Below are positions 3,264 to 63,127 of a DNA stretch of 64,000 nt, in pieces. The DNA comes from Escherichia coli (lineage in GTDB: Bacteria > Pseudomonadota > Gammaproteobacteria > Enterobacterales > Enterobacteriaceae), in NCBI RefSeq assembly GCF_044324785.1, contig NZ_CP172127.1. One strand, 5' to 3'. Each line of letters starts with the position of its first letter. Position 1 is the first letter of the stretch. Below the pieces are notes generated by a model. That model ran no database searches, was not told the origin of the DNA, and saw only the letters and a list, made by a program, of their open reading frames with translations. A program made the position numbers and the translations under genes.

Positions 3264-3280
3264 TAAACATCTTCATTTCA

Positions 3281-3307: not shown

Positions 3308-3323
3308 TGACACCGAGGTCATT

Positions 3324-5813: not shown

Positions 5814-5834
5814 TCATTTCAAGGAATTAATCAT

Positions 5835-7840: not shown

Positions 7841-7850
7841 CTAACGGCAA

Positions 7851-7886
7851 TAAAAACGCCGGGCAGCGTTAACAGGCCCGGCGTTG
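7851..7886 (-). terminator. Rho-independent terminator downstream of accC, shared with the convergent sugar operon
   Basis: 10-bp stem AACGCCGGGC/GCCCGGCGTT with 11-nt loop, followed on the minus strand by TTTTTATT. Confidence 0.5.
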
Positions 7887-7931
7887 ATTACGTTCTTTGC
7901 TAAGCGCGATGAAAACACCGCGCGTCACAAA

Positions 7932-41968: not shown

Positions 41969-42031
41969 TGCCACTTTAGTGAAGCAGATCGCATTATAAG
42001 CTTTCTGTATGGGGTGTTGCTTAATTGATCT

Positions 42032-42054
42032 GGTATAACAGGTATAAAGGTATA
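42032..42054 (+). promoter_or_regulatory. NanR operator (three GGTATA repeats) in the nanA promoter
   Basis: GGTATAacaGGTATAaaGGTATA read directly, ~40 bp upstream of nanA; matches the described Nan box. Confidence 0.7.
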
Positions 42055-42089
42055 TCGTTTATCAGACAAGCATCACTTCAGAGGTATTT

Positions 42090-42983
42090 ATGGCAACGAA
42101 TTTACGTGGCGTAATGGCCGCACTCCTGACTCCTTTTGACCAACAACAAGCACTGGATAAAGCGAGTCTGCGCCGCCTGGTTCAGTTCAATATTCAGCAG
42201 GGCATCGACGGCTTATACGTGGGTGGTTCGACCGGCGAAGCCTTTGTACAAAGCCTTTCCGAGCGTGAACAGGTACTGGAAATCGTCGCCGAAGAGGCGA
42301 AAGGCAAGATTAAACTTATCGCTCACGTAGGTTGCGTCAGCACTGCTGAAAGCCAACAACTTGCGGCATCGGCTAAACGTTATGGCTTCGATGCCGTCTC
42401 CGCCGTCACGCCGTTCTACTATCCTTTCAGCTTTGAAGAACACTGCGATCACTATCGGGCAATTATTGATTCGGCGGATGGTTTGCCGATGGTGGTGTAC
42501 AACATTCCTGCCCTGAGCGGGGTAAAACTAACCCTGGATCAGATCAACACACTTGTTACGTTGCCTGGCGTCGGTGCGCTGAAACAGACTTCTGGCGATC
42601 TCTATCAGATGGAACAGATCCGTCGTGAACATCCTGATCTGGTGCTCTATAACGGTTACGACGAAATCTTCGCCTCTGGTCTTCTGGCGGGCGCTGATGG
42701 TGGTATCGGTAGCACCTACAACATCATGGGCTGGCGTTATCAGGGGATTGTGAAGGCGCTGAAAGAAGGCGATATCCAGACCGCGCAGAAGCTGCAAACC
42801 GAATGTAATAAAGTCATTGATTTACTGATCAAAACGGGCGTATTCCGCGGCCTGAAAACTGTTCTGCATTATATGGATGTCGTTTCTGTGCCGCTGTGCC
42901 GCAAACCGTTTGGTCCGGTAGATGAAAAATATCTGCCAGAACTGAAGGCGCTGGCCCAGCAGTTGATGCAAGAGCGCGGGTGA
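42090..42983 (+). CDS. nanA: N-acetylneuraminate lyase
   Basis: 297-aa ORF recognised as NanA. Confidence 0.95.
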
Positions 42984-42990
42984 GTTTTTT

Positions 42991-43020
42991 CCCCTCGCTC
43001 GCCCCTACCGGGTGAGGGGA
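42991..43020. repeat. GC-rich imperfect palindrome (CCCCTCGCTC...GGGTGAGGGGA), copy 2
   Basis: Directly after the nanA stop; same arms as the element at 25138-25176. Confidence 0.35.
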
Positions 43021-43091
43021 AATAAACGCATCTGTACCCTACAATTTTCATACCAAAGCGTGTGGGCATCGCCCACCGCGGGAGACTCACA

Positions 43092-44582
43092 ATGAGTACT
43101 ACAACCCAGAATATCCCGTGGTATCGCCATCTCAACCGCGCACAATGGCGGGCATTTTCCGCTGCCTGGTTGGGATATCTGCTTGACGGTTTTGATTTCG
43201 TTTTAATCGCCCTGGTACTTACCGAAGTACAAGGTGAATTCGGGCTGACGACGGTGCAGGCGGCAAGTCTGATCTCCGCAGCCTTTATCTCTCGCTGGTT
43301 CGGCGGCCTGATGCTCGGCGCTATGGGTGACCGCTACGGGCGTCGTCTGGCAATGGTCACCAGCATCGTTCTCTTCTCGGCCGGGACGCTGGCCTGCGGC
43401 TTTGCGCCAGGCTACATCACCATGTTTATCGCTCGTCTGGTCATCGGCATGGGGATGGCGGGTGAATACGGTTCCAGCGCCACCTATGTCATTGAAAGCT
43501 GGCCAAAACATCTGCGTAATAAAGCCAGTGGTTTTCTGATTTCCGGCTTCTCTGTGGGGGCCGTCGTTGCCGCTCAGGTCTATAGCCTGGTGGTTCCGGT
43601 CTGGGGCTGGCGTGCGCTGTTCTTTATCGGCATTTTGCCAATCATCTTTGCTCTCTGGCTGCGTAAAAACATCCCGGAAGCGGAAGACTGGAAAGAGAAA
43701 CACGCAGGTAAAGCACCAGTACGCACAATGGTGGATATTCTCTACCGTGGTGAACATCGCATTGCCAATATCGTAATGACACTGGCGGCGGCTACTGCGC
43801 TGTGGTTTTGCTTTGCCGGTAACCTGCAAAATGCCGCGATCGTCGCTGTTCTTGGGCTGTTATGCGCCGCAATCTTTATCAGCTTTATGGTGCAAAGTAC
43901 GGGCAAACGCTGGCCAACGGGCGTAATGCTGATGGTGGTCGTGTTGTTTGCTTTCCTCTACTCATGGCCGATTCAGGCGCTGCTGCCAACGTATCTGAAA
44001 ACCGATCTGGCTTATAACCCGCATACTGTCGCCAATGTGCTGTTCTTTAGTGGCTTTGGCGCGGCGGTGGGATGCTGCGTAGGTGGTTTCCTCGGTGACT
44101 GGCTGGGAACCCGCAAAGCGTACGTTTGTAGCCTGCTGGCCTCGCAGCTGCTGATTATTCCGGTATTTGCGATTGGCGGCGCAAACGTCTGGGTGCTCGG
44201 TCTGTTACTGTTCTTCCAGCAAATGCTTGGACAAGGGATCGCCGGGATCTTACCGAAACTGATTGGCGGTTATTTCGATACCGACCAGCGTGCAGCTGGC
44301 CTGGGCTTTACCTACAACGTCGGCGCATTGGGCGGTGCACTGGCCCCAATCATCGGCGCGTTGATCGCTCAACGTCTGGATCTGGGTACTGCGCTGGCAT
44401 CGCTCTCGTTCAGTCTGACATTTGTGGTGATCCTGCTGATTGGTCTGGATATGCCTTCCCGCGTTCAGCGTTGGCTGCGCCCGGAAGCATTGCGTACTCA
44501 TGACGCTATCGACGGCAAACCATTTAGCGGTGCCGTGCCATTTGGCCGCGCCAAAAACGATTTAGTCAAAACCAAAAGTTAA
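43092..44582 (+). CDS. nanT: Sialic acid MFS transporter
   Basis: 496-aa protein from [19 protein letters not shown]; GGAG RBS; ORF track has a 10-codon extension. Confidence 0.95.
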
Positions 44583-44629
44583 TCCTGTTGCCCGGTCTCT
44601 GTACCGGGCCTTTCGCTAAGGGAAGATGT

Positions 44630-45315
44630 ATGTCGTTACTTGCACAACTGGATCAAAAAATCGCTGCTAACGGTGGCCTGATTGTCTCCTGCCAGCCGGT
44701 TCCGGACAGCCCGCTCGATAAACCCGAAATCGTCGCCGCCATGGCATTAGCGGCAGAACAGGCGGGCGCGGTTGCCATTCGCATTGAAGGTGTGGCAAAT
44801 CTGCAAGCCACGCGTGCGGTGGTGAGCGTGCCAATTATCGGGATTGTGAAACGCGATCTGGAGGATTCTCCGGTACGTATCACGGCCTATATTGAAGATG
44901 TTGATGCGCTGGCGCAGGCGGGCGCGGACATTATCGCCATTGACGGCACCGACCGCCCGCGTCCGGTGCCTGTTGAAACGTTGCTGGCACGTATTCACCA
45001 TCACGGTTTACTGGCGATGACCGACTGCTCAACGCCGGAAGACGGCCTGGCATGCCAAAAGCTGGGAGCCGAAATTATTGGCACTACGCTTTCTGGCTAT
45101 ACCACGCCTGAAACGCCAGAAGAGCCGGATCTGGCGCTGGTGAAAACGTTGAGCGACGCCGGATGTCGGGTGATTGCCGAAGGGCGTTACAACACGCCTG
45201 CTCAGGCGGCAGATGCGATGCGCCACGGCGCGTGGGCGGTGACGGTCGGTTCTGCCATTACGCGTCTTGAACACATTTGTCAGTGGTACAACACAGCGAT
45301 GAAAAAGGCGGTGCT

Positions 45316-45319
<4 letters not shown>
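44630..45319 (+). CDS. nanE: N-acetylmannosamine-6-phosphate 2-epimerase
   Basis: 229-aa protein from [22 protein letters not shown]; ORF track has a 14-codon extension. Confidence 0.95.
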
Positions 45320-46652
<1,333 letters not shown>

Positions 46653-46727
46653 ATTTATTAGCTCAGGTGTGACCTGACCCATCTTTGGCACAGAGCCAAA
46701 CCTGAACTGACGGACCGCTCTGTGCCA

Positions 46728-47069
46728 TTACCTGACGTTGTATTCTTTTATGTTAACACCCTTGATGCTGTATATACCTGTCCGCTTAATTCGCTTACCC
46801 TTTTTATTCGTAATAGTTGCTGTAAGTGTACTGCAGCGAATGGAATGACGTTCATCAATCACCAGCCGAATTGCTTCTGAAGCATCTTCCACCTCTAGAA
46901 GGTCGTGAGTCTTATTTAAGCCGAATGGAACAAGGTGGAAGGCAGTTTTTCCAGATGATTTTCTGGTTATTTTTACTGGATACAACACATCACCACTTTT
47001 ATGGATTAATTCAAGCTGTTCAATGTAAATCATAGCAACTTTCCTTCGTTTATCTGCATGAATATACAA
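46728..47069 (-). CDS. Orphan hypothetical protein in AT-rich DNA (113 aa from TTG; more likely 101 aa from the ATG at 47033)
   Basis: ORF in ~40% GC sequence; internal ATG at 47033 has AGGAAA 6 nt upstream; lysine-rich C-terminus; no family recognised; coding status unproven. Confidence 0.4.
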   Translation of the reverse strand: MYIHADKRRKVAMIYIEQLELIHKSGDVLYPVKITRKSSGKTAFHLVPFGLNKTHDLLEVEDASEAIRLVIDERHSIRCSTLTATITNKKGKRIKRTGIYSIKGVNIKEYNVR

Positions 47070-47120
47070 ACCGAAAATAGGAGATGCAATACAAAAGCTG
47101 TGGAAATATCAAACAGCCTC

Positions 47121-47378
47121 TCAATTTGGCAGGCAGCGTCTGCCAAATCTTTGCCGATGGAAATTCTGCAGACGGTGTCTGCAGAACTTCAACGTGTTGA
47201 TAAAAAGGTAAAAAAGCCTAATTTGGCGTAAGTTTTTTGCAGAGAACCCACGCTTATATCTTAGACTTAAATCCTTTGATAGTCGCTTGATTAGCTGCGC
47301 ACCATACGCAGCCCTAGCCTCGCCACCTTGTTCAAATTCGACAATCCGTCGGCCAATTTCCCAGTACGTCGCGGTCAT
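47121..47378 (-). pseudogene. yhcG: Frameshifted, truncated remnant of yhcG (DUF1016 PD-(D/E)XK nuclease-like)
   Basis: First ~57 codons (MTATYWEIGRRIVEFEQGGEARAAYGAQLIKRLSKDLSLRYKRGFSAKNLRQ) read like the YhcG N-terminus; the frame then degenerates and stops at 85 aa while a plausible continuation (LQTPSAEFPSAKIWQTLPAKL) is in another frame; the ~290 C-terminal codons of the 375-aa K-12 protein are absent. Confidence 0.6.
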
Positions 47379-47487
47379 TAACGCGTTAACACTACGTACC
47401 GTTTCCGTCCGGGCACTATCGAACTGGTGAATAATGTCTCCATGTACCCGCTTGTAGCCTAAATATCGCTACTTTATTTTTAACCAA

Positions 47488-48153
47488 TTAATAATATTTC
47501 AGTGTGATTTCCGCTGTGCCACTGAATTCCATCTTGTCCGTAACATTCAACTCCGACATCGCATTAATCGCAGAGCTGATTTTAAGTGGCACAGTTAGTG
47601 TGGTCAGATTTTGCGGTGAAGATGTACCAAATGCGTAAACGGTTGTGTTATCTGGGCTGACGATCTGCCAATTCCCAGTAGACTTTATCCATGTTGGATT
47701 GCTGCTATCAGTTGCTGAAAGTACAGAAACCCCTGTTCCGTTATCGACGGTAATCCCCATATTATCAATCATAATGGCCCATGCTCCGACCGGCTTATTT
47801 TTGAATAACCCCAGCCCCAGCAGGTCGCTTTGTGTTAATGCGCTACCGAGCGGAATTTTTGCCGCCATTGCAGTACCAGAATTGAGATCTTTAATAAGAA
47901 TCCCTGGGGCAGCGCTGCCTGGACAGCTAATTGATAGTTGGGTATTTTGATCTGGTAAGCGTGTGGCATCCTGGGTATTCATATTTGCAACAATATAGGT
48001 TCCAAGATTAATGACGCTATTCGTCAGGTTAATTGAACAGGAAGGCGGTTCCACCAACGCGCTAACATGGATGGTGATGTCTGCGGCACTGACATTGGTG
48101 GAACAGAAAAGCGTTATCAGGCCAATCAGCGATATTTTATTCATGACTATCAC
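47488..48153 (-). CDS. yhcF: Fimbrial-like protein (DUF1120)
   Basis: 221-aa ORF, GTG start overlapping the yhcE stop, signal peptide, C-terminus FSGTAEITLKYY. Confidence 0.75.
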   Translation of the reverse strand: MIVMNKISLIGLITLFCSTNVSAADITIHVSALVEPPSCSINLTNSVINLGTYIVANMNTQDATRLPDQNTQLSISCPGSAAPGILIKDLNSGTAMAAKIPLGSALTQSDLLGLGLFKNKPVGAWAIMIDNMGITVDNGTGVSVLSATDSSNPTWIKSTGNWQIVSPDNTTVYAFGTSSPQNLTTLTVPLKISSAINAMSELNVTDKMEFSGTAEITLKYY

Positions 48154-48722
48154 TCCGGTCGGCTATTCAGAGAAATGTTCAGGTCGTTGGTGAGCGTAAG
48201 TAAGTCTTGAGGGTTAATATCCTTGCCTGTGATCAATGGCAGTATCGCCAGTTGTACACTGGCCTGTGTTAGCGCCTGTTCGCGATCATGCTGCATAAAA
48301 GATATACCTTCCGAAGGTAATAAAACAATATTAGATGTACCGCCGTCTTGAAGTTGGTTGCTCACGGAAACACGAGACACAGAGGCACTCTGACCGCCTA
48401 TTGTCGGATTAGAGGCTTTGACTCGTATCACGCTCTGCTCGCCAAACTTAAATAGTGATTTTCCTTTATATGTCAATTTATTACCGTCAATCATGACGTG
48501 TACATAATGTGGTGAATCGCATTGAATATTCAGCGTAATATAGCGTTCTGGCAACGCAATACCATCCACCACCGTGGTATTGATGGTGTGTAATGTGCGT
48601 GAAGAACGATCAACCTTTCCCCAGGCAATATCCTGTTGGTTGGCTGTCACCTTACAGTTCTCGGCCAACGTAAATTGACTAAAAAAACAGGTTATTAGCA
48701 GAAGAGCCAAAGATGTTTTCAT
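48150..48722 (-). CDS. yhcE: Fimbrial-like protein, intact
   Basis: 190-aa uninterrupted ORF with signal peptide MKTSLALLLITCFFSQFTLA; no IS sequence present. Confidence 0.75.
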   Translation of the reverse strand: MKTSLALLLITCFFSQFTLAENCKVTANQQDIAWGKVDRSSRTLHTINTTVVDGIALPERYITLNIQCDSPHYVHVMIDGNKLTYKGKSLFKFGEQSVIRVKASNPTIGGQSASVSRVSVSNQLQDGGTSNIVLLPSEGISFMQHDREQALTQASVQLAILPLITGKDINPQDLLTLTNDLNISLNSRPE

Positions 48723-48734
48723 CTTGTTATTTCC

Positions 48735-51176
48735 TTATAAACAATGAGCTTGAACCGTTTCGTATACCACACTATCAGGCGCATCTTTGGGTAACGTATA
48801 TTGTAGATGGCATATTTTGCCATCAGGAAGAATAACCTTAAGAGTGTCCGTATTATTTTCAATGTTATTAATAAAGAAGGTGCCTTCTTCAACAACGGAG
48901 GTCAGATAGTTTCCCTGTGCGGTATGAACAGAACTATTCAGAGGTAAAAGGGCATTATTGAATCGCACATCCTGGAACATCACCCGACGTGCTGATAGCA
49001 CGGTGAAGGAAATACTTCCGACTGAATAACGCCCTTGTTTAACTTCTTGAGTAGCGTTTGCAATATCGGTTTTTTTAGCCAATGATTTGGGGTCAATTTC
49101 AACAATTGCCGTCTGGTACGGAGGTAAAACGGGCACAACAGCTTGCCCCCACCAGTCAGTCCATGCGGCACCCTGTGGCGTTTGAATTTGGACGCCAGCC
49201 TGTTTTTGGCTCAATTGGGCAATGGCCCAGGTATCAGCGATCCTGTCCGGGGAAAAGGTTATTCCATCCTTGTGCAGAGCGATCCCGCCATCAAGCGTGG
49301 CAGAAGAATAATGGCTGTCCGAGCCGCTTTGTCCCGCAGATAGTCCGAGGCGAGTATAATGTAGGTTAGTATTAAGGCCACCGCTGGCATTATTGCCACT
49401 ATCTTGGCTACGTTCATAGCTGACATAATAACTACTGTCTTTCAGGAAGGCGCCAGAAAGCGTTGAGCCAATGCGAGTATCATTATTTTCATGTCGCACC
49501 CAACTACTGGAATAATGGTTACCTAAAGGCACGTAAACAGTAAGGTTAAGTGAGTCTTCACTGTCATTTCCTTTTTCATGCCGGTAATAAAAATTGGTGG
49601 AGAAATATTTAAACTGCCTACTCCAGTTTATTGTGGTGTTAGTTGAATCACCGTCACGATAATAGCTTTTATTATTGGTATAACTTAGGCTAATTCCACC
49701 TAATAAATCGTGATACCAGGTCAGCGATCCAGTAAGCTCATTTTTATTGTAGGCATAGAATTTATTGTCATCTCCATAATCCCATGGTTGGTCGCTGATA
49801 TCGTCATTTTGCGTGGAATCAAGCAAATCGCGATAACCTCGCTCACTCCAGGTGTCGGTAACGGAAAAGCTTAAATTATCCAGCAGGTCTGCACCTAACG
49901 TGATCGCTGCCTGATTCCCTCGCTTATTATGATTATCATCGACCGCACTTCGGAGCTGAATAGAAGTTGACCAGTGAGTGAAAGGCTGAAAATCAACCCC
50001 GCCAGCAAAAGCATAATAGTTATTTGCGACGATGCCGCCTGTCGATAAAGTATAAGTATTAAAAACCGGCTGACTCCAGGCACCGCTTAACACCATCGGT
50101 TCGTCATCTTCTGCACCAACCTCGCGAACCCGGCCTACGGCAAAATTGTAGTTTGGTGTTCCTGTCACCGTTCGACGGAAAGAATCGCTAAAAACAGTAA
50201 ACTGGTCGCTACTCCCATCGCTTTCGATAACTGTCACATCCAGGTTACTGCTTTGATTCAGGACTGGAACGTTGGTTAAAGTAAATGGTCCCATTGGAGC
50301 CAAAGTAGAATAAATAAGCTGTTTATTTTGTCGGATTTCAATGCGTGCTTGCGATGATTTGACATTACCAGAAACCATCACATCATTACGTCTGTTTGGG
50401 GTTAGCGAAATATCAGGTTGTATCTGTACACCGTAAAGTGAGGCGCCGGAAAGTAGGGGGTTGGCAAGGTTGATCCCGCCTGCCTGCATATTTATTTTGC
50501 TTGCGGTGAAAGTATGTTCGGCATAAGTATAGAGATTGTCGAGATTGTGATCGCCATTAGATAAGGCAACCGAGGTACTATTACGTATTATCCAGTCGCC
50601 CATATTGATGCCGCTTTGTAGCGCAGCACTGGTATAATTATCATTATCGCCGTTATATTTATTAATATTATGCAATAATGAATAGTTTATAGTCGCCCCC
50701 GTCCCTCCAGTGGTGTAACCGCTAACCTCATCTGGGGATTGTAAGGCAATCGCCTCTGTCGGTAATAACACAAAGACTTTGTATTGCGCCGAATCGAAAT
50801 GTACCACCGCTGATGGATAGAGCATCTGCAATGTTTGGCAACGGTCGTCAGTTTCCGTTAAATTTTGTGGGATGATGACACCAGCTCTTTGCATCCAGTT
50901 AGTGTCAGCGCAAAGTTCGCCTTGTGGGTCAATAGTGATGGTAACATTGACATTTCGGTGACCATTAATGTCCATATTGACCTGTTGCGTGCCGGGAGGA
51001 AGACGTGCTTCTTTTGAAAAATAAGCCGCAACATTTTTATCTATACCAAATGAGCGTAACGCATCGCTATTGAAGTTAAGAGCGGTCTCCATCTCTTCCT
51101 GCGACGAAGCTGCCATAGCTATAATAGGAATAAAATGCAGCACTAGAAAGATCTTGTTGAGGGGAAAATATTTCAA
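48735..51176 (-). CDS. yhcD: Fimbrial outer-membrane usher
   Basis: 813-aa ORF with usher-type beta-barrel pattern and conserved C-terminal Cys pair; start may be at an internal Met. Confidence 0.9.
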   Translation of the reverse strand: MKYFPLNKIFLVLHFIPIIAMAASSQEEMETALNFNSDALRSFGIDKNVAAYFSKEARLPPGTQQVNMDINGHRNVNVTITIDPQGELCADTNWMQRAGVIIPQNLTETDDRCQTLQMLYPSAVVHFDSAQYKVFVLLPTEAIALQSPDEVSGYTTGGTGATINYSLLHNINKYNGDNDNYTSAALQSGINMGDWIIRNSTSVALSNGDHNLDNLYTYAEHTFTASKINMQAGGINLANPLLSGASLYGVQIQPDISLTPNRRNDVMVSGNVKSSQARIEIRQNKQLIYSTLAPMGPFTLTNVPVLNQSSNLDVTVIESDGSSDQFTVFSDSFRRTVTGTPNYNFAVGRVREVGAEDDEPMVLSGAWSQPVFNTYTLSTGGIVANNYYAFAGGVDFQPFTHWSTSIQLRSAVDDNHNKRGNQAAITLGADLLDNLSFSVTDTWSERGYRDLLDSTQNDDISDQPWDYGDDNKFYAYNKNELTGSLTWYHDLLGGISLSYTNNKSYYRDGDSTNTTINWSRQFKYFSTNFYYRHEKGNDSEDSLNLTVYVPLGNHYSSSWVRHENNDTRIGSTLSGAFLKDSSYYVSYERSQDSGNNASGGLNTNLHYTRLGLSAGQSGSDSHYSSATLDGGIALHKDGITFSPDRIADTWAIAQLSQKQAGVQIQTPQGAAWTDWWGQAVVPVLPPYQTAIVEIDPKSLAKKTDIANATQEVKQGRYSVGSISFTVLSARRVMFQDVRFNNALLPLNSSVHTAQGNYLTSVVEEGTFFINNIENNTDTLKVILPDGKICHLQYTLPKDAPDSVVYETVQAHCL

Positions 51177-51187
51177 GATAGCATTCC

Positions 51188-51889
51188 TTAATGATCAACA
51201 GGTAGATTTACACTGTTCACTTTTATTCCATAACGAGATAAAGGCTGTAGGATGACTTGATTAATTGGCAGCGAACTGGATAAAGTAGCCGTTAACGTTT
51301 CACCAGGTAAAATAAAGGTACGCAGCAGGTCTACCATTTTATTATTTTCAGGTATGATGATTTCAGGAGATAGACGAATCACGTAAGCGCCGGTATTTAC
51401 AACCTGTAAATTCGTACCTTGTTGTTTAAATTTTAAATCGCCCCATGGTTCTTTGTTTTTTTTAATGTTTTTTGGCGTGATGATGACAGGGATATCCTGT
51501 GTGTAAATAACATTCAGCTTAATGTTATCAGTTTTTTTTTCATCAGCATTTTTTGATGGAATACCACTAAATTGGGCTCGCATCATATGTTCTACCATAA
51601 GTGGTTTAGTCGTTTGTAATATGAAACGAACTTGTTGCCTTTTTCCCGATTCGACGCGTACGACAGGTTGGGTTGGTATTAGTTTAATACCACTGTTTTT
51701 TTCTTCATCAATCAGGCTGGTTCTGACATATAGCAATGCCGCATCGCTGCCAGTATTAGTCACATTAATACTGGCTTCGCCATCTTCCTCGTAGACTTCC
51801 AGTACTGGCGTTTCGGGCTGCATACCAGCGGTCCAACCATGGGAGGAGAAAAGACAGTAGCCGAAGAATAAATAACGTAAATATTTCAT
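51188..51889 (-). CDS. yhcA: Periplasmic fimbrial chaperone (PapD-like)
   Basis: 233-aa ORF with signal peptide and chaperone pattern. Confidence 0.9.
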   Translation of the reverse strand: MKYLRYLFFGYCLFSSHGWTAGMQPETPVLEVYEEDGEASINVTNTGSDAALLYVRTSLIDEEKNSGIKLIPTQPVVRVESGKRQQVRFILQTTKPLMVEHMMRAQFSGIPSKNADEKKTDNIKLNVIYTQDIPVIITPKNIKKNKEPWGDLKFKQQGTNLQVVNTGAYVIRLSPEIIIPENNKMVDLLRTFILPGETLTATLSSSLPINQVILQPLSRYGIKVNSVNLPVDH

Positions 51890-52007
51890 AAATTATAAAC
51901 GCATAATATAAAAAGAACGATACGCCCACAGAATGTGTAGGCGTTGTTTTATTAAATTATTCATGTATGTTATTTTTCAGTTAAAACTAAAAAATAACAG
52001 CAATAAA

Positions 52008-52754
52008 TTATTTATATTCCAGGAAGACTTCAAAGCCACCTGTATACTCTTCACGCCCGGTCACATCAGCGAAAGAGGCTTTATCCAGCAGCGCGACCGT
52101 TGTTTGTAGCGGGAAAACAACTGTTTTAGCTGGCGTGATGGAAGTCTTTCCTGGTTCTGCAACAGAAATACGACGAGTATTGGTTAAAGATACTGCACCA
52201 GCTGAATCTTTAGGCACGATGGTCCATGGCTGGTCAAGGTCGGTGCTATAGCTATAGATCAGCACTTTTTCAACTGGGGTAGGGTTTGCAACAGTGGTGA
52301 TTGTCGGGGTTCTGAATACAGTCCAGAATGCTCCAGCACCTTTGCCGCCAGCACGCAGTAGTGGGTTGATCTGATTTTTTGAAGAGCCGAGAGTTAAATC
52401 AACTGTGCGACCATCTGCAGTGTTAATGATGGTAGGATTGCCGTTAGAAAGCGTTTTTACTTTGCTTTCATCAGCGGCATTGAGATGATTAGTTCTTAGT
52501 GCAACATACATATCGGTCGGACAATCAACTTTAAGCTGACTTTCTTTGATCATCGGTAGGTTATTCGATGCATCGGTAAGTTGATCAACAGCCTGAGTAC
52601 CAAAATCCAGAGTGTTACCCTCAATAATACCCAGTGAACATCCCGAAGGGACTAAAAGACCTTTCACGGTAATGGTTGCATCCGCAGCCAGAGCTGAACC
52701 GGTGGTAATAGCCAGAATCGCTACGCTGAGCGTAAGCTTTTTAACTAATGACAT
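52008..52754 (-). CDS. gltF: Periplasmic DUF1120 protein GltF
   Basis: ORF track 52008-52790; signal peptide MSLVKKLTLSVAILAITTGSALA favours the start at 52754; C-terminus GGFEVFLEYK resembles yhcF. Confidence 0.7.
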   Translation of the reverse strand: MSLVKKLTLSVAILAITTGSALAADATITVKGLLVPSGCSLGIIEGNTLDFGTQAVDQLTDASNNLPMIKESQLKVDCPTDMYVALRTNHLNAADESKVKTLSNGNPTIINTADGRTVDLTLGSSKNQINPLLRAGGKGAGAFWTVFRTPTITTVANPTPVEKVLIYSYSTDLDQPWTIVPKDSAGAVSLTNTRRISVAEPGKTSITPAKTVVFPLQTTVALLDKASFADVTGREEYTGGFEVFLEYK

Positions 52755-53200
52755 GTTGTTAAATTCCATGTTAAGTAAATGTTGTATCAAGACGTGAAAA
52801 CATTGTTTTTAATAAAGCTTTGAGAGTATACAAAATATTTCTTTAAATAAATTTTAAAATATATATGTTTTATTTTTTACATAATTTATGTGAATTGTTT
52901 TTTTGTTATTTTGGGATCGGGTGTCACTTTTTAGGTGTTATTTATTCGATTTATGAATATTTACTTTAAAAAATCAGAATATATAAAGACAGTTTTTTCG
53001 GGGATTGGCTCGTATTGTAAGAGCTGAAATTGTTTACTCTGTGGATTCGAGGAAGAAAGGTACTAAGACAATTATTTGTCTTGGTTTGCCCATCTATAAT
53101 TGAAAATGCGTTACGAGTTGTGGAAGATGAAGATAGATGAGGTGAGGATCCAGCTCCCTGTCATCTGTTATGCTGTCAGGGAACCGGAAAGTGCTAGGGC

Positions 53201-54631
<1,431 letters not shown>

Positions 54632-57600
54632 TTACTGCGCCTGCACGCGCAACTCTGCTGCGCTACGACTACGGTGACCCAGCAGTGCTTTTACATCACT
54701 GGACTTCGGTTTAACCAGCGCAAATTTAGTGGCGAAGGTTGACCAGTTCGCCAGAATCTCTTCACCGCGCTGAGAGCCAGTATGCTGAACATGCTCGGTG
54801 ATAAGACCACGCAGATGCTCTTCATGGATTGCCAGATCGTCAACGCTTAAGACCTCGACCAGTTCCGGGTTAACGCGTTTGCGGAAATCGCCGCTTTCAT
54901 CGAGAACGTAAGCGAAGCCACCGGTCATGCCCGCGCCGAAATTCACGCCGGTTTTACCCAGAATACAGACGATACCGCCCGTCATATATTCACAGCCGTT
55001 GTCGCCAATGCCTTCTACCACGGTGATAGCACCGGAGTTCCGCACGCCGAAACGTTCACCCGCGCGGCCTGCGGCATACAGACGACCACCGGTCGCGCCA
55101 TACAGGCAGGTGTTGCCGATAATGCTTGCTTCGTGGCTGCGGAAGGCTGAGCCAACCGGAGGACGAATGGCGATTAAGCCGCCCGCCATGCCTTTACCAA
55201 CATAGTCGTTGGCATCACCGGTCAGGTACAGTTCCACGCCGCCCGCGTTCCACACGCCGAAGCTCTGGCCTGCGGTGCCGTTGAAGTACGCTTTGATCGG
55301 ATCGGCTGCCAGCCCCTGATCGCCGTGCGTCTGGGCGATATAGCCTGAAAGCGATGCGCCGACAGAACGGTCGGTGTTGCGAATATCGAACCAGAAGGTT
55401 TTGCTCTGGCGTTCATCGACAAACGGTTTCGCCTGTTGCAGCAACTGCGCGTTCAGCAGACCGTTATCAAACGGCGGGTTGTTTTCGGTGCAGTAAAGTG
55501 CCTTACCAGCATGCGGCTCGGCAGTCTCCAGCAGCTTCGACAGTGCCAGTTTCTGCTGTTTGGCGGTGAAACCGTCCAGCTCTTTCAGCAGGTCGGTGCG
55601 ACCAATCAGATCCACCAGACGCGTTACCCCCAGCTGTGCCATCAGCTCGCGGGTTTCACGAGCGATAAACTCAAAGTAATTCGTCACCTTGAATGGCAGG
55701 CCGTGATAGTGATTCTTACGCAGTTTGTCATCCTGAGTTGCCACACCCGTTGCGCAGTTGTTCAGGTGGCAAATACGCAGATATTTACAGCCGAGCGCCA
55801 CCATTGGGCCAGTGCCGAAGCCGAAGCTTTCTGCGCCGAGAATCGCCGCTTTGATTATATCAACGCCGGTTTTCAGGCCGCCATCGACCTGCAAACGGAT
55901 TTTATGACGTAAACCGTTGGCAACCAGCGCCTGTTGGGTTTCCACCAGGCCGAGTTCCCACGGGCAGCCTGCATATTTCACTGACGACAGCGGGCTTGCG
56001 CCGGTGCCGCCGTCATAGCCCGCGATGGTGATCAAGTCCGCATAAGCTTTCGCCACGCCAGTCGCGATGGTGCCAACGCCTGGTTCGGACACCAGCTTCA
56101 CGGAGATCATCGCTTTCGGGTTAACCTGCTTGAGGTCGAAAATAAGCTGCGCTAAGTCTTCGATAGAGTAGATATCGTGGTGCGGCGGCGGGGAGATCAG
56201 CGTCACTCCGGGCACCGAATAGCGCAGTTTGGCGATGTAAGGAGTGACTTTGTCGCCCGGCAACTGACCGCCTTCGCCCGGCTTCGCGCCCTGGGCGACT
56301 TTAATCTGAATGACGTCAGCATTGACCAGGTACGCCGGAGTAACGCCGAAGCGACCAGAAGCCACCTGCTTGATGCGCGACACTTTGTTAGTGCCGTAGC
56401 GCGCCGGATCTTCACCACCTTCACCGGAGTTGGAGTTGCCGCCAATGCTGTTCATCGCTTCCGCCAGCGCCTCGTGGGCTTCCGGGCTTAACGCGCCGAT
56501 AGACATTGCGGCGGTATCGAAGCGTTTAAACAGTTCGCTTGCCGGTTCAACATCAGCAATGTTGACTGCGTTTTCACCCGGCGTAATTGCCAGCAGATCG
56601 CGCAGCGTGGTTGCCGGACGCTCATTAACCAGCTTCGCGTATTCCTGATAGTCGCTGTACTCGCCGCTTTGTACCGCCTGTTGCAGTGTGCGCACCACGT
56701 CTGGGTTGTAGGCGTGGTATTCGCCGCCGTGCACATATTTCAGCAGGCCGCCCTGGCTGATGGGCTTACGCGCCAGCCAGGCACGTTTCGACAGATTCAG
56801 CAGATCCTGCTGGAAGTCTTCAAAGCTTGCCCCGCCAATGCGGCTGACCGCGCCCTGGAAGCACAGGCCCACTACATCATCGTGTAGACCGACCGCTTCA
56901 AACAGTTTCGAGCAGCGGTAAGAGGCGATGGTGGAGATGCCCATTTTGGACATGATTTTGTACAAGCCTTTGTTGATGCCGTTACGGTAGTTGAGCATCA
57001 CGGTACGATAATCTTTGGCAATCGCGTGGGTGTCTACCAGGCGGCCCAGCGTTTCATAGGCAAGGTACGGATAAATAGCCGTCGCACCGAAGCCCAGCAA
57101 CACGGCGAAGTGGTGCGGATCGCGGGCGCTGGCGGTTTCGACGATGATGTTGGCATCGCAACGCAGGCTTTGATCGACCAGACGGGTCTGGATCGCGCCA
57201 ACCGCCATCGGGGCTGGAACCGGCAGGCGATCTTTAGCGATATTCCTGTCGGAGAGCACCAGCAGCACAGTGCCGCTACGTACCATTTTTTCAGCTTTGT
57301 CGCACAGCTCTTTGACCGTCGCTTCGAGCGTGGTTTTAGTGACGTCAAAGGTGATATCCAGTGTATCTGCGCGGTAGTGCTCCTCTTTCATCGTCGTGAG
57401 CTGTTTGAAATCGGAGTAGAGCAGAATCGGCGATTTAAAGCTTAAACGGTGCGCCTGGCCCTCTGCTTCGCAAAAGACGTTCATTTCACGACCGATACTG
57501 GTGGCGAGCGACATAACATGCGCTTCACGCAGCGGGTCGATTGGCGGGTTAGTCACCTGGGCAAACTGCTGGCGGAAGTAATCGTAAATAATGCGCGGCT

Positions 57601-59185
57601 GACTGGAGAGCACGGCGAATGGGGTGTCGTCGCCCATCGAACCGACCGCTTCCTGACCGTTTTCGCCCAGTACGCGAATTACGGAGTCCAGCTCTTCCGC
57701 GCTGTAGTTAAACTGTTTCTGGTAGCTGGCAAGTGTGTCGTCGTCCAGTTCGCGGCTACCCACTTCTTCATCGGGCAGATCTTCAAACGGTACCAGTCGG
57801 CGGACGTTTTTCTCCATCCACTCTTTATATGGATGGCGGCTTTTTAGATCGTCATCAGTTTCTGCCGAGTGCAGAATACGCCCACTGCGGGTGTCGATAA
57901 CCATCAGTTCGCCTGGCCCGACGCGGCCTTTTTCGACCACTTCGTCAGGCTGATAATCCCAGATACCGACTTCAGAGGCGCAGGTGATGAGCTTATCTTT
58001 GGTGATGACGTAGCGCGCCGGACGCAGACCGTTACGGTCGAGGTTACAGGCGGCAAAACGACCGTCAGACATCACGATGCCTGCCGGGCCATCCCACGGC
58101 TCCATATGCATGGAGTTAAAGTCAAAGAAGGCGCGCAGTTCCGGGTCCATATCCGGGTTGTTCTGCCAGGCTGGTGGCACTAATAGACGCATGGCACGGA
58201 TGATATCCATCCCGCCTGCCAGCAGGAGTTCCAGCATGTTATCCATCGAACTGGAGTCAGAGCCGGTTTCGTTGACGAACGGCGCGGCGTCGTGCAGGTC
58301 AGGGATAAGCGGCGTCTGGAATTTATAGGTACGCGCACGCGCCCATTGGCGGTTACCGGTGATGGTGTTGATTTCACCGTTATGCGCCAGGTAGCGGAAC
58401 GGCTGCGCCAGCGGCCAGCGCGGTACGGTGTTAGTGGAAAAGCGCTGGTGAAACAGGCAGATGGCCGATTCCAGACGCAGGTCCGCGAGGTCCAGGTAGA
58501 AGCGCGGCAGATCCGCAGGCATACACAGACCTTTATAAATATTGACCAGATTCGACAGGCTACAGACGTAGAAGTCTTTGTCGGCTTCGAGACGCTTTTC
58601 AATGCGGCGGCGGGCGATAAACAGACGGCGCTCCATATCGCGCGGACGCCAGCCTGCCGGGGCGTTCACAAAAATTTGCTCAATGCGTGGCAGAGAGGAG
58701 AGGGCGATTTCACCCAGCACGCCTTCGTTAGTGGGGACATCACGCCAGCCCACAATCGATAAGGTTTCGCGTTGCAGCTCTTCTTCAACGATGCGGCGTG
58801 CGGCAGCGGCGAGTTCAGGATCTTTATTCAGGAATAGCATCCCGACGGCGTAGTTTTTCGCTAAACGCCAGCCGCGCTCCTGCGCAACGATGCGAAAAAA
58901 GCGATCCGGTTTTTGTAACAGCAAGCCGCAACCGTCACCGGTTTTACCATCGGCGAGAATCGCGCCACGGTGCTGCATGCGGGCCAGTGCGTGTATTGCA
59001 GTACGCACTACCTTGTGGCTAGGTTCGCCTTCTATGTGGGCGATCAGGCCGAAACCACAGTTATCCCTCTCAAGGGATTTATCGTACAACATATCGTGAA
59101 CCTCCCCCAGGCTCTGCGGGAACCCCACTTCCGAACCGCTGCGCACGGGCACAGAAAGAGCGTGGCGACGGGGTTTGCGTGTCAT
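54632..59185 (-). CDS. gltB: Glutamate synthase large subunit
   Basis: 1517 aa from MTRKPRRHALS with the catalytic Cys in ...ERDNCGFGLIAH; ORF track has a 23-codon extension. Confidence 0.95.
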   Translation of the reverse strand: MTRKPRRHALSVPVRSGSEVGFPQSLGEVHDMLYDKSLERDNCGFGLIAHIEGEPSHKVVRTAIHALARMQHRGAILADGKTGDGCGLLLQKPDRFFRIVAQERGWRLAKNYAVGMLFLNKDPELAAAARRIVEEELQRETLSIVGWRDVPTNEGVLGEIALSSLPRIEQIFVNAPAGWRPRDMERRLFIARRRIEKRLEADKDFYVCSLSNLVNIYKGLCMPADLPRFYLDLADLRLESAICLFHQRFSTNTVPRWPLAQPFRYLAHNGEINTITGNRQWARARTYKFQTPLIPDLHDAAPFVNETGSDSSSMDNMLELLLAGGMDIIRAMRLLVPPAWQNNPDMDPELRAFFDFNSMHMEPWDGPAGIVMSDGRFAACNLDRNGLRPARYVITKDKLITCASEVGIWDYQPDEVVEKGRVGPGELMVIDTRSGRILHSAETDDDLKSRHPYKEWMEKNVRRLVPFEDLPDEEVGSRELDDDTLASYQKQFNYSAEELDSVIRVLGENGQEAVGSMGDDTPFAVLSSQPRIIYDYFRQQFAQVTNPPIDPLREAHVMSLATSIGREMNVFCEAEGQAHRLSFKSPILLYSDFKQLTTMKEEHYRADTLDITFDVTKTTLEATVKELCDKAEKMVRSGTVLLVLSDRNIAKDRLPVPAPMAVGAIQTRLVDQSLRCDANIIVETASARDPHHFAVLLGFGATAIYPYLAYETLGRLVDTHAIAKDYRTVMLNYRNGINKGLYKIMSKMGISTIASYRCSKLFEAVGLHDDVVGLCFQGAVSRIGGASFEDFQQDLLNLSKRAWLARKPISQGGLLKYVHGGEYHAYNPDVVRTLQQAVQSGEYSDYQEYAKLVNERPATTLRDLLAITPGENAVNIADVEPASELFKRFDTAAMSIGALSPEAHEALAEAMNSIGGNSNSGEGGEDPARYGTNKVSRIKQVASGRFGVTPAYLVNADVIQIKVAQGAKPGEGGQLPGDKVTPYIAKLRYSVPGVTLISPPPHHDIYSIEDLAQLIFDLKQVNPKAMISVKLVSEPGVGTIATGVAKAYADLITIAGYDGGTGASPLSSVKYAGCPWELGLVETQQALVANGLRHKIRLQVDGGLKTGVDIIKAAILGAESFGFGTGPMVALGCKYLRICHLNNCATGVATQDDKLRKNHYHGLPFKVTNYFEFIARETRELMAQLGVTRLVDLIGRTDLLKELDGFTAKQQKLALSKLLETAEPHAGKALYCTENNPPFDNGLLNAQLLQQAKPFVDERQSKTFWFDIRNTDRSVGASLSGYIAQTHGDQGLAADPIKAYFNGTAGQSFGVWNAGGVELYLTGDANDYVGKGMAGGLIAIRPPVGSAFRSHEASIIGNTCLYGATGGRLYAAGRAGERFGVRNSGAITVVEGIGDNGCEYMTGGIVCILGKTGVNFGAGMTGGFAYVLDESGDFRKRVNPELVEVLSVDDLAIHEEHLRGLITEHVQHTGSQRGEEILANWSTFATKFALVKPKSSDVKALLGHRSRSAAELRVQAQ

Positions 59186-59765
59186 ACGCGCGCCTCGCAT
59201 TCGCCCCCTTGTTGTCCTTTCGCATCGGTTAATACGGTGAAGAGGGGATCTCAATTACTGCATAAATATGATGAGCAGGCTGCTCATCCAGAAAGCTTCC
59301 AGCGGATTTCCAACTTATCGGGAAAGCTGATACAGGTCAAATGGCAAGCTTATTGGTACAGAAATGTGCTTTAGCGCAAAATTCTTTATTAATTAGCTGA
59401 AATTAAAATAGATTTTCTATTTAAGACTAAAAGGGGAGTCGTTAGAGAAACAGCCAATTCCTGACTGTCATAAAGGCGTGTTAACCCTTATCCTGCCTTG
59501 AACTGGCGAGAAAACCAGCATTTTATACTGCCTTAATTGGTAATGACGTTTCATGCTACTGTTTTTGCCTAAAATCCATAAGGCGATAAAAAAATCTGAC
59601 ACAAGATAAGCAAAAATGATTTATGTGATCATGCATGAAATTTCGGTAATTTTGATTGATTATGCAGTTGATAAAAGCGGTCCGGGACGATTGATCCAGG
59701 TCATCGCCGAATTGAGCTAAAAATGGCAGGCTTTGGCCTCTTTTCAAGGCGCGGTCTATCAGATT

Positions 59766-60695
59766 ATGCAGTTACAGAAATTAGTCAATATGTTTGGTGG
59801 TGATCTCACCCGTCGTTATGGGCAAAAGGTGCATAAGCTGACGCTGCACGGCGGTTTTAGCTGCCCTAACCGTGACGGTACCATCGGGCGTGGTGGCTGC
59901 ACATTCTGTAATGTTGCCTCGTTTGCCGATGAAGCGCAGCAGCATCGTTCCATTGCCGAACAACTGGCGCACCAGGCGAATTTAGTTAACCGCGCTAAAC
60001 GCTATCTGGCCTACTTTCAGGCGTATACCAGCACCTTTGCGGAAGTTCAGGTGTTGCGTTCTATGTATCAGCAGGCGGTGAGCCAGGCCAATATTGTCGG
60101 TTTGTGTGTTGGTACCCGCCCGGACTGCGTGCCGGATGCGGTGCTGGATCTGCTTTGTGAATATAAAGACCAGGGCTACGAAGTGTGGCTGGAGCTGGGG
60201 CTGCAAACCGCGCACGACAAAACGCTACATCGCATCAATCGCGGTCATGATTTCGCCTGTTATCAGCGCACGACGCAACTGGCACGCCAGCGCGGGCTGA
60301 AAGTGTGCTCGCATTTAATTGTTGGCCTGCCTGGCGAAGGGCAGACGGAATGTTTGCAAACGCTGGAGCGAGTGGTTGAAACCGGCGTGGACGGCATAAA
60401 GCTGCATCCGCTGCATATTGTGAAAGGCAGTATTATGGCGAAAGCCTGGGAAGCGGGGCGTTTCAACGGTATTGAACTGGAGGATTACACGTTCACTGCC
60501 GGAGAAATGATTCGCCATACGCCACCGGAAGTGATCTACCACCGCATTTCCGCCAGCGCCCGTCGCCCGACGTTGCTTGCTCCGCTGTGGTGCGAAAATC
60601 GATGGACGGGAATGGTCGAGCTGGATCGCTATCTGAATGAACATGGCGTACAGGGATCGGCGCTGGGACGCCCGTGGCTACCTCCAACGGAGTAG
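59766..60695 (+). CDS. yhcC: Radical SAM protein YhcC
   Basis: 309 aa from MQLQKLVNMFGGDL; Cys cluster CPNRDGTIGRGGCTFC; ORF track has an 11-codon extension. Confidence 0.9.
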   Translation: MQLQKLVNMFGGDLTRRYGQKVHKLTLHGGFSCPNRDGTIGRGGCTFCNVASFADEAQQHRSIAEQLAHQANLVNRAKRYLAYFQAYTSTFAEVQVLRSMYQQAVSQANIVGLCVGTRPDCVPDAVLDLLCEYKDQGYEVWLELGLQTAHDKTLHRINRGHDFACYQRTTQLARQRGLKVCSHLIVGLPGEGQTECLQTLERVVETGVDGIKLHPLHIVKGSIMAKAWEAGRFNGIELEDYTFTAGEMIRHTPPEVIYHRISASARRPTLLAPLWCENRWTGMVELDRYLNEHGVQGSALGRPWLPPTE

Positions 60696-60790
60696 ACCAT
60701 TGAGGGGAATTCCGCATTTCTCACACAATTTATAACGTAACTGTCAGAATTGGGTATTATTGGGGCAGGTTGTCGTGAAGGAATTCCCTA

Positions 60791-63127
60791 ATGAAGCAAA
60801 TTCGTCTGCTGGCGCAGTATTATGTTGACCTGATGATGAAGTTAGGTCTGGTGCGCTTCTCAATGTTGCTGGCGCTGGCCCTCGTCGTTCTTGCCATTGT
60901 GGTACAAATGGCAGTGACCATGGTGCTGCATGGTCAGGTCGAAAGCATTGATGTTATTCGTTCTATCTTCTTTGGTTTGCTGATTACGCCGTGGGCGGTC
61001 TACTTTCTATCGGTGGTTGTCGAGCAACTGGAGGAGTCACGGCAACGTCTGTCACGGCTGGTGCAAAAACTGGAGGAGATGCGCGAGCGCGATTTGAGCC
61101 TCAACGTTCAGTTAAAAGATAATATTGCCCAGCTAAATCAGGAAATCGCCGTTCGTGAAAAAGCGGAAGCAGAACTGCAGGAAACCTTCGGCCAACTGAA
61201 AATTGAAATTAAAGAGCGCGAAGAGACACAAATTCAGCTCGAACAGCAATCCTCATTCTTACGTTCCTTCCTTGATGCTTCACCCGACCTGGTTTTTTAT
61301 CGTAACGAAGATAAAGAGTTTTCCGGCTGTAACCGCGCGATGGAGCTGCTGACCGGAAAAAGCGAAAAACAACTGGTTCACCTGAAACCTGCTGATGTTT
61401 ACTCACCGGAAGCCGCTGCGAAAGTCATTGAAACCGATGAAAAAGTGTTCCGTCATAATGTGTCACTGACCTATGAGCAGTGGCTGGATTATCCCGACGG
61501 ACGCAAAGCCTGCTTTGAAATCCGTAAAGTGCCGTACTACGACCGCGTGGGTAAACGTCACGGTTTGATGGGCTTTGGTCGCGACATTACCGAGCGTAAG
61601 CGGTATCAGGATGCACTTGAACGCGCCAGCCGCGACAAAACGACGTTTATCTCCACCATCAGTCACGAATTGCGTACACCGCTGAACGGTATCGTCGGCC
61701 TGAGCCGCATTCTGCTGGATACCGAACTCACCGCCGAGCAGGAAAAATATCTCAAAACCATCCATGTTTCTGCCGTCACGCTGGGGAATATCTTTAACGA
61801 TATTATCGACATGGATAAGATGGAACGGCGCAAGGTCCAGCTTGATAATCAACCGGTTGATTTCACCAGCTTCCTTGCCGATCTGGAAAATCTCTCCGCA
61901 TTGCAGGCGCAACAAAAAGGATTGCGCTTTAATCTGGAGCCTACGCTGCCATTACCGCATCAGGTCATTACCGACGGGACGCGTTTACGGCAAATCCTGT
62001 GGAACCTCATCAGTAACGCCGTCAAATTCACCCAGCAAGGCCAGGTTACCGTGCGCGTGCGCTACGATGAAGGCGATATGCTGCATTTTGAAGTGGAAGA
62101 CTCTGGTATCGGCATTCCGCAGGATGAGCTGGATAAAATCTTCGCCATGTATTACCAGGTGAAAGACAGTCATGGCGGTAAACCTGCCACCGGCACCGGT
62201 ATTGGTCTGGCCGTTTCTCGTCGTCTGGCGAAAAATATGGGCGGCGATATTACGGTTACCAGCGAACAGGGCAAAGGTTCAACCTTTACGTTGACGATCC
62301 ACGCACCGTCGGTGGCAGAAGAGGTCGATGATGCGTTTGATGAAGACGATATGCCTTTACCGGCGCTGAATGTGCTGCTGGTGGAAGACATTGAACTGAA
62401 CGTGATTGTCGCGCGTTCTGTGCTGGAAAAATTAGGTAACAGCGTTGATGTCGCCATGACCGGCAAGGCGGCGCTGGAGATGTTTAAACCGGGCGAATAC
62501 GACCTGGTATTGCTGGATATTCAGTTGCCAGATATGACCGGGCTGGATATCTCTCGTGAACTGACGAAGCGTTATCCGCGCGAGGATTTACCGCCGCTGG
62601 TGGCCTTAACCGCTAACGTGCTGAAAGACAAACAAGAGTACCTCAATGCTGGAATGGATGATGTGCTGAGTAAGCCGCTTTCTGTTCCGGCGCTAACCGC
62701 GATGATCAAGAAATTCTGGGATACCCAGGATGATGAGGAGAGTACGGTGACGACAGAAGAGAACAGTAAATCAGAAGCATTGCTCGATATTCCCATGCTG
62801 GAACAGTATCTCGAACTTGTAGGACCGAAGCTGATCACCGACGGGTTAGCGGTGTTTGAGAAGATGATGCCGGGCTATGTCAGCGTGCTGGAGTCGAATC
62901 TGACGGCGCAGGATAAAAAAGGCATTGTTGAGGAAGGACATAAAATTAAAGGTGCGGCGGGGTCAGTGGGGTTACGCCATCTGCAACAGCTGGGTCAGCA
63001 AATTCAGTCTCCTGACCTTCCCGCCTGGGAAGATAACGTCGGTGAATGGATTGAAGAGATGAAAGAAGAGTGGCGTCACGACGTAGAAGTGCTGAAAGCG
63101 TGGGTGGCAAAAGCCACTAAAAAATGA
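60791..63127 (+). CDS. arcB: Aerobic respiration control sensor kinase
   Basis: 778-aa ORF with membrane helices, PAS, HisKA (SHELRTPLN), ATPase, receiver and Hpt domains. Confidence 0.95.
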   Translation: MKQIRLLAQYYVDLMMKLGLVRFSMLLALALVVLAIVVQMAVTMVLHGQVESIDVIRSIFFGLLITPWAVYFLSVVVEQLEESRQRLSRLVQKLEEMRERDLSLNVQLKDNIAQLNQEIAVREKAEAELQETFGQLKIEIKEREETQIQLEQQSSFLRSFLDASPDLVFYRNEDKEFSGCNRAMELLTGKSEKQLVHLKPADVYSPEAAAKVIETDEKVFRHNVSLTYEQWLDYPDGRKACFEIRKVPYYDRVGKRHGLMGFGRDITERKRYQDALERASRDKTTFISTISHELRTPLNGIVGLSRILLDTELTAEQEKYLKTIHVSAVTLGNIFNDIIDMDKMERRKVQLDNQPVDFTSFLADLENLSALQAQQKGLRFNLEPTLPLPHQVITDGTRLRQILWNLISNAVKFTQQGQVTVRVRYDEGDMLHFEVEDSGIGIPQDELDKIFAMYYQVKDSHGGKPATGTGIGLAVSRRLAKNMGGDITVTSEQGKGSTFTLTIHAPSVAEEVDDAFDEDDMPLPALNVLLVEDIELNVIVARSVLEKLGNSVDVAMTGKAALEMFKPGEYDLVLLDIQLPDMTGLDISRELTKRYPREDLPPLVALTANVLKDKQEYLNAGMDDVLSKPLSVPALTAMIKKFWDTQDDEESTVTTEENSKSEALLDIPMLEQYLELVGPKLITDGLAVFEKMMPGYVSVLESNLTAQDKKGIVEEGHKIKGAAGSVGLRHLQQLGQQIQSPDLPAWEDNVGEWIEEMKEEWRHDVEVLKAWVAKATKK

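Follow-up and report, generated by a model that had tools for sequence, protein, structure and literature searches.

A five-gene chaperone-usher cluster lies between gltD and a remnant of yhcG in a 64,000-nucleotide (nt) stretch of Escherichia coli DNA (RefSeq assembly GCF_044324785.1, contig NZ_CP172127.1; hereafter the window). Our analysis supports the view, with a probability of roughly 0.85, that this cluster belongs to a separate, deeply diverged lineage of beta-class chaperone-usher fimbriae at the yhc locus and is not the allele carried there by strain K-12. The original prediction, covering 47488–51889, had named it the yhcA-yhcD-yhcE-yhcF operon of K-12 without the insertion sequence (IS) element IS5 that splits yhcE in that strain. 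The cluster is complete, encoding a GltF-like subunit, a chaperone, an usher, a YhcE-like protein and a YhcF-like protein; the GltF-like gene is a fifth member that falls outside those limits. The main features are as follows.

52008..52754, minus strand: GltF-like DUF1120 subunit gene, first in the cluster; 248 amino acids (aa) from ATG, the open reading frame (ORF) reaching a TTG at 52790
51188..51889, minus strand: periplasmic chaperone, YhcA-like, assigned to the beta type; 233 aa; PapD_N at an expectation value (E) of 3.4e-17
48735..51176, minus strand: outer-membrane usher, YhcD-like, assigned to the beta class; 813 aa; Pfam Usher (5.6e-83), PapC_N and PapC_C
48150..48722, minus strand: YhcE-like subunit; 190 aa, without a Pfam match; predicted pilin fold, no N-terminal donor strand
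47488..48144, minus strand: YhcF-like DUF1120 subunit; 218 aa from ATG, with a donor-strand extension (47488–48153 if a GTG start is used)
47436..53195, no strand assigned: whole block without a counterpart in K-12 or complete RefSeq E. coli (boundaries from blastn against K-12, GF3-3 and MS 21-1); 42% GC

The minus strand of 47488–51889 holds four ORFs whose ends and starts coincide exactly with the limits first given, and none of them contains an IS element, a frameshift or an internal stop. Their lengths (233, 813, 190 and 218 aa) are those called in near-identical E. coli contigs and are nearly equalled in a 51%-identical relative (232, 820, 192 and 218 aa). Pfam recognizes PapD_N in the chaperone, PapC_N, Usher and PapC_C in the usher, and DUF1120 in the last ORF (47488–48153). 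Spacers of 11, 12 and 5 nt separate the chaperone, usher, YhcE-like and YhcF-like genes. The prediction of an uninterrupted and tightly packed chaperone-usher system at the yhc locus, in the slot between gltD and yhcG/nanQ, is therefore upheld; its further claim that yhcE and yhcF overlap by ATGA is not, the junction reading ...GAG TGA TAG TC ATG..., where only a GTG start would give an overlap (GTGA). The ATG of the YhcF-like gene (MNKISL..., the beginning of a signal peptide) lies 5 nt past the stop behind a GGAG, and gene callers choose the same ATG. The usher starts at a TTG behind an AGGA Shine-Dalgarno site.

The gene order in K-12 MG1655 is gltD-gltF-yhcA-yhcD-yhcE-yhcF-yhcG-nanQ, and yhcE is indeed annotated as a pseudogene split by IS5R/insH10. 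The window agrees with this locus in the slot from gltD to yhcG/nanQ, in five-gene order and in orientation, with each protein homologous to its positional counterpart; both cluster types are low in G+C content (GC; 43–44%) and have AT-rich upstream regions (31–32% GC). A 160-nt probe across the empty IS5 site of the K-12-type yhcE matched 1,141 of 5,426 complete RefSeq E. coli genomes and was uninterrupted in 788, with the K-12 IS5 junction in 343 (mostly K-12 derivatives among the matches listed); IS-free K-12-type gltF-yhcADEF loci were also reported in 2017 in phylogroup A enterotoxigenic E. coli (ETEC) (PMC5216030). An operon intact here and broken in K-12 is thus no special contrast. The shared slot and gene order, the lack of IS5 in the window and the frequency of uninterrupted K-12-type yhcE genes would all suit an ordinary K-12 operon, an orthologous allele that never received IS5 or has lost it.

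The alignments refute that reading, and we give it next to no credence. In blastn against the K-12 locus, alignments are confined to gltBD (95.9%), part of yhcG (83.5%) and the nan genes (97.1%); the predicted locus, order and open frames stand, and the identification with the K-12 yhcA-yhcF genes fails, there being no DNA match across 47436–53198. Neither megablast of 47488–51889 nor a more sensitive blastn mode found the cluster in any of the 5,426 complete genomes, so that the K-12 type is present in 1,141 of them and the window type in none; megablast and blastn similarity is lacking across 47436–53195, to K-12 and to every complete E. coli genome alike. At the protein level identity to K-12 is 39% for YhcA, 35% over 789 residues for YhcD (E 3e-158), 27% for YhcF, 26% for GltF and 26% for YhcE (E 4e-12, with K-12 YhcE rebuilt by removing IS5), that is 26–39% for the cluster proteins versus 96–99% for the flanking genes. 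The window further differs in having yhcE and yhcF non-overlapping and yhcG reduced to a remnant. The five genes are homologous to and colinear with their K-12 counterparts, and their divergence is far beyond allelic.

Profile scores and alignments point to the beta class. The usher reaches 710.6 bits on NCBIfam NF011832 and no more than 181 bits on all other usher models, the chaperone passes NF007392 (212 bits, cutoff 183), and the YhcE-like and DUF1120 proteins match the neighbouring models PRK15301–15303. Presumably the models PRK15301–15304 derive from stj. The usher is full-length, with N-terminal, pore/plug and C-terminal domains matched (PapC_C below cutoff) and both C-terminal Cys residues conserved; it aligns end to end with the FimD structure (residues 35–864; 109 bits) and scores 68 bits against PapC. 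A PDB sequence search with the chaperone returned no match at E 0.001 or better. The subunits are of the DUF1120 type, together with a YhcE-family gene after the usher, and there is no two-domain tip adhesin. The features of classical type 1 and P pili (gamma, pi) are missing: Pfam gives no PF00419 match, and there is no adhesin-sized ORF. A layout of one or two DUF1120 genes, chaperone, usher, YhcE-like gene and up to two further DUF1120 genes recurs in about 80 loci of Enterobacterales, Pseudomonas, Herbaspirillum and Burkholderia.

In the classification of Nuccio and Baumler, the beta class includes the YhcD and Salmonella StjB ushers (PMC5216030, PMC9238391). The models best matched by the window proteins, NF011832 for the usher, NF011829 for the YhcE-like protein and NF011830/31 for the DUF1120 proteins, link the cluster to Salmonella Stj (StjB; PMC9238391); Stj occupies another chromosomal locus, and, the chaperone apart, the window proteins score under the equivalog or subfamily cutoffs. 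Beta-type clusters adjoin gltD, in convergent orientation, in Enterobacter, Leclercia, Klebsiella oxytoca/michiganensis, Pseudenterobacter and Silvania (gltD-convergent loci L014, L016, L017, L020, L021, L028, L029, L035, L084, L085, L088 and L090). Because many Enterobacteriaceae carry a beta cluster there, often convergent with gltD, and ushers of the different gltD-linked lineages are only 31–55% identical to one another, the site downstream of gltD is, on these comparisons, an old home of such clusters.

Several points weigh against the assignment or against a working fimbria. The usher falls 12 bits short of the curated NF011832 cutoff of 723, and PapC_C, at 22.7 bits, is below the Pfam cutoff of 27. 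The beta placement comes from profile scores and alignments, without a formal tree of reference ushers from all clades. No beta-class surface structure is reported in PMC5216030 or PMC3559732, and ETEC deleted for its K-12-type yhc locus showed no adhesion phenotype (PMC5216030). Finally, frameshifted chaperone alleles occur in many isolates, indicating that the system is dispensable in some lineages.

The cluster is carried by a minority of E. coli isolates, a few hundred draft genomes. GenBank EMB3657706.1, assigned to E. coli, is identical to the window usher; within the 90% identity cluster of this protein the most frequent variant is found on more than 260 contigs (514 index blocks), and the exact GltF-like protein is found on about 300 E. 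coli contigs. All carrier contigs examined show gltBD, the five genes and nanQ, and over 18.4 kb they match the window at 99.2–99.995% identity. Outside this group the nearest usher shares only 51% identity and lies on a metagenome contig (k141_4853 of ERZ27284837; locus L003), which likewise has gltBD, five colinear genes and nanQ; its YhcE-like and YhcF-like proteins are 39% and 56% identical to those of the window. This contig differs in its higher GC, in having no nanE or nanK and in its gltBD, whose DNA identity of only 86.5% marks it as coming from another enterobacterium. Closer at the DNA level is a fragment from SRR22936685 (L092), 84.6% identical to the window over 2.7 kb. Judged by their sequences, L003, L092 and the window form one deep branch. 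A scan of one genome each for about 100,000 species yielded 125 related ushers, from Enterobacterales, Pseudomonas, Herbaspirillum, Burkholderia and Collimonas, the best of them 36% identical, and no donor species emerged from it. The YhcF-like protein, used as query in a word-indexed protein search, retrieved only itself.

Beta chaperones lack the classical subunit-anchoring residues and have analogues of the archaic and alternative ones (Pakharukova et al.; PMC4654587). The mature N-terminus of the window chaperone, GMQPETPVLEVYEEDGEASINVTN, contains no basic residue, and Pro134 takes the place of the classical Lys (DraB IKLFVRP) in the alignment. R104 aligns with CsuC Arg89; R104, P134, R172 and G221 are invariant in 75 beta-type chaperones and Y220 is kept in 69 of the 75. 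We infer that R172 and Y220 are the counterparts of CsuC Arg174 and Tyr196. The chaperone thus shares with CsuC and EcpB (PMC4654587) a non-classical carboxylate-anchoring Arg and the conserved Arg and Tyr of domain 2, without the classical Arg8/Lys112 pair; the usher and subunits, in contrast, are not of the Csu/SCPU or Ecp type, and overall similarity to CsuC is marginal (E 0.08). Beta-class systems appear to pair classical ushers with a non-classical chaperone anchor.

The chaperone gene contains two A-runs.

51532..51540, minus strand: A9 homopolymer in the chaperone gene, in frame here
51456..51463, minus strand: second run (A8) in the chaperone gene, in the coding direction

The first run is A8 instead of A9, with the chaperone truncated at 124 aa, in 85 index blocks from public E. 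coli assemblies (the truncated proteins P0049 and P0047 end in ...ADEKKLITLS); a rarer variant of 151 aa breaks at the second run. The runs, which are missing from the chaperone genes of L003 and L092, may mark a site prone to slippage or act as an on/off switch.

The cluster shows the hallmarks of pilus subunits: an incomplete immunoglobulin (Ig)-like pilin fold, a donor strand at the N-terminus and an aromatic residue in the penultimate position of the C-terminal strand. A DUF1120 alignment was built from ORFs adjoining related ushers. In both the YhcF-like and the GltF-like protein a signal peptide is followed by about 14 residues of alternating hydrophobicity up to the first Cys, and the C-terminal strands end in ...LKYY and ...LEYK, respectively. 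The N-terminal stretch of the YhcF-like protein aligns with the FimG donor strand. The GltF-like protein, a Pfam DUF1120 member with weak matches to NCBIfam PRK15302/15303, continues after its signal peptide with ADATITVKGLLVPSGC (N-terminal extension plus Cys) and closes with ...GGFEVFLEYK. An AlphaFold model of the YhcF-like protein (predicted local distance difference test, pLDDT, 85; N-terminal extension disordered) best matches FimI, the FimH pilin domain, CupB6 and FimA. A PDB sequence search with the YhcE-like protein gave no match, and fold comparison was used instead; both models are pilin folds, with a donor strand on the YhcF-like protein and none on the YhcE-like protein.

These features are consistent with the following scheme. 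All five proteins would be exported by the Sec pathway. The chaperone would hold subunits by donor-strand complementation through R104 and the domain 2 residues R172 and Y220, rather than through a classical Arg/Lys pair, and the usher would polymerize them by donor-strand exchange. Since the YhcE-like protein has a predicted pilin fold without an N-terminal donor strand, it would only accept a strand, and we infer that it sits at the distal end as the tip subunit. The two DUF1120 proteins, having donor strands, would build the fibre. Its major subunit is probably the GltF-like protein, given the leading position of that gene and the terminator-like hairpin behind it; the YhcF-like protein is a candidate adaptor or minor subunit. 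The product could be a thin fibre or an afimbrial polymer. Single-domain tip subunits are known from polyadhesins (AfaD/DraD, SafD). These have no sequence similarity to the YhcE-like protein, and the likeness would be one of functional analogy only.

Two noncoding features bear on expression.

52755..53200, minus strand: intergenic region from the gltD stop to the GltF-like gene; AT-rich, 31% GC
51915..51944, minus strand: terminator-like hairpin with T-run between the genes for the first subunit and the chaperone, a consensus match only

The first is presumed to be the promoter and regulatory region of the cluster, and its AT-rich sequence would probably keep expression silenced in the laboratory. 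No promoter can be named in it, because a scan of this upstream region found neither a strict sigma-70 consensus match nor sigma-70-like sites, the latter being fewer overall than in shuffled sequence. The hairpin has a 9-bp stem with 5 G-C pairs and the tail ATCGTTCTTT, and adjoins a 30-nt AT-rich inverted repeat at 51953–52014. It is possibly an attenuator that sets subunit excess; the region 51915–52014 resembles the attenuators that follow major-subunit genes in other fimbrial operons. Rfam detects no RNA family in 46000–54000.

Substitution patterns bear on whether the cluster still matters to the cell. Compared with the 85%-identical sister L092, the ratio of nonsynonymous to synonymous substitution (dN/dS) is lowest in the usher (0.077) and reaches 0.18 in the YhcE-like and 0.16 in the YhcF-like gene, values that point to long-term purifying selection on the usher and both downstream subunits; E. 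coli carriers differ among themselves by 0–1 substitutions per gene, too few for an informative ratio. These ratios, the retention of the family-invariant chaperone residues and the pilin folds of the subunit models make the genes look functional, and it is possible that the strain expresses a fimbria from them. A cryptic relic, whose ORFs are open by chance in a silent, decaying cluster of no use to the cell, would be in keeping with a beta-class yhc locus without known phenotype (PMC5216030), with the deletion of the locus altogether in most E. coli, with the frameshifted chaperone in many cluster-carrying isolates, and with an upstream region as AT-rich as is typical of silenced DNA. Such decay is hard to reconcile with constraint maintained across 15% DNA divergence from the sister lineage, with a chaperone that has kept every family-invariant residue, with ORF lengths conserved in relatives at 51% identity, or with a block near-identical in two backgrounds whose outer flanks differ. 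We judge a relic unlikely, and a diverged beta-class lineage under selection to be the better account.

DNA homology to other E. coli ends at 53195–53199, directly after the gltD stop. Identity to the best complete genome is about 98–99.8% over most of the window (98.8% for positions 1–24000 against the best complete genomes), falls to 97.4–97.9% on the nan side and to 96.0–97.1% in gltDB, and then recovers; around the cluster itself, the best complete-genome coverage consists of the two flanks only. The nan operon and gltDB flanks (42000–47435 and 53196–62000) are 2–4% divergent from the best complete E. coli, against about 1% elsewhere, and for the two flanks within 44000–56000 no complete genome exceeds 96.8% identity. 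The pattern suggests that the divergent flank DNA came in together with the cluster. Between the window and another carrier (L007) there are 4 differences in 47000–56000, as compared with 111 in 41–47 kb and 34 in 56–59 kb.

Recent import from another genus on a mobile element, such as an island, a transposon or a phage remnant, might be suspected from the GC of 42–43% against 55–58% in the flanks, from the absence of the block in most E. coli and from the unusual divergence of its surroundings. The K-12 cluster, however, is equally low in GC; beta-type clusters adjoin gltD in many Enterobacteriaceae; and among the roughly 100,000 species-representative genomes no usher is more than 36% identical. 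Moreover, the boundaries are the gltD stop and the 5' end of yhcG and carry no integrase, transposase, tRNA or terminal repeats. Neither direct nor inverted terminal repeats came up at the block boundaries in a repeat search, on which ground the mobile-element origin was set aside; it strikes us as slightly less probable even than a relic. The simplest reading of the sequences is that the cluster and gltD move as a block between E. coli backgrounds by homologous recombination, since they are near-identical in two backgrounds with differing outer flanks; movement together with the near flanks is favoured because no integrase, tRNA or terminal repeats mark the block. The cluster-less strains GF3-3 and MS 21-1 keep a K-12-like yhcF-yhcG spacer and so are deletion derivatives of the K-12-type locus.

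K-12 Yhc, listed as sporadic within the beta clade by Wurpel et al. (2013; PMC3559732), is the only beta-class chaperone-usher locus catalogued in the species (PMC3559732, PMC5216030), and the window type is absent from the 38-type E. coli fimbrial catalogue. No description of the cluster was found in the literature searched, and its proteins stand in databases under generic names. Beta-class systems are widespread in Enterobacterales, Pseudomonas and Burkholderiales, with no structure or function reported in the literature found. As a tentative proposal, which we think may well prove wrong, the cluster could be an undescribed, functional second beta-class type in E. coli beside Yhc, built from DUF1120 pilins with an acceptor-only tip of the YhcE family, switched by slippage at the A9 run, spread along with gltD by homologous recombination and possibly serving as a niche-specific colonization factor. 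With two alleles only about 35% identical and a deletion state at one site, E. coli offers a clear example of allelic replacement in a fimbrial locus, and the cluster adds another intact template on which expression and structural studies can draw. It also calls for caution in annotation: position and gene order suggest the names yhcADEF, and adhesin-typing tools based on K-12 would miss the cluster. In practical terms its significance is modest, since intact yhc operons of the K-12 type are already common, without a phenotype shown.

On its downstream side the block is bounded by a gene fragment outside the fimbrial system.

47121..47435, minus strand: 5' remnant of yhcG (DUF1016), with DUF1016_N; 83.5% identical to the 5' part of K-12 yhcG

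This remnant closes the locus on the downstream side, and the annotation of strain GF3-3 treats it as a pseudogene. It is followed by a 113-aa ORF (46728–47069, minus strand) that is labelled 'transposase' in the RefSeq annotation of GF3-3 and has no Pfam or NCBIfam match; the arrangement of remnant and ORF is common to the window and to cluster-less E. coli such as GF3-3. A 5-kb contig assigned to a metagenome-assembled genome (MAG) of Collinsella sp. (L013) encodes an usher 100% identical to K-12 YhcD, with YhcE and YhcF of K-12 length, and probably represents E. coli DNA misassigned during binning. At the start of the window, positions 1–9000 carry a cluster for a sugar kinase, a DeoR regulator, a tagatose-bisphosphate aldolase and an ATP-binding cassette (ABC) transporter beside accBC. 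Positions 1–24000 are covered to at least 80% by only 1,419 of the 5,426 complete genomes; part of this segment is variable, possibly the sugar cluster at 1–9000.

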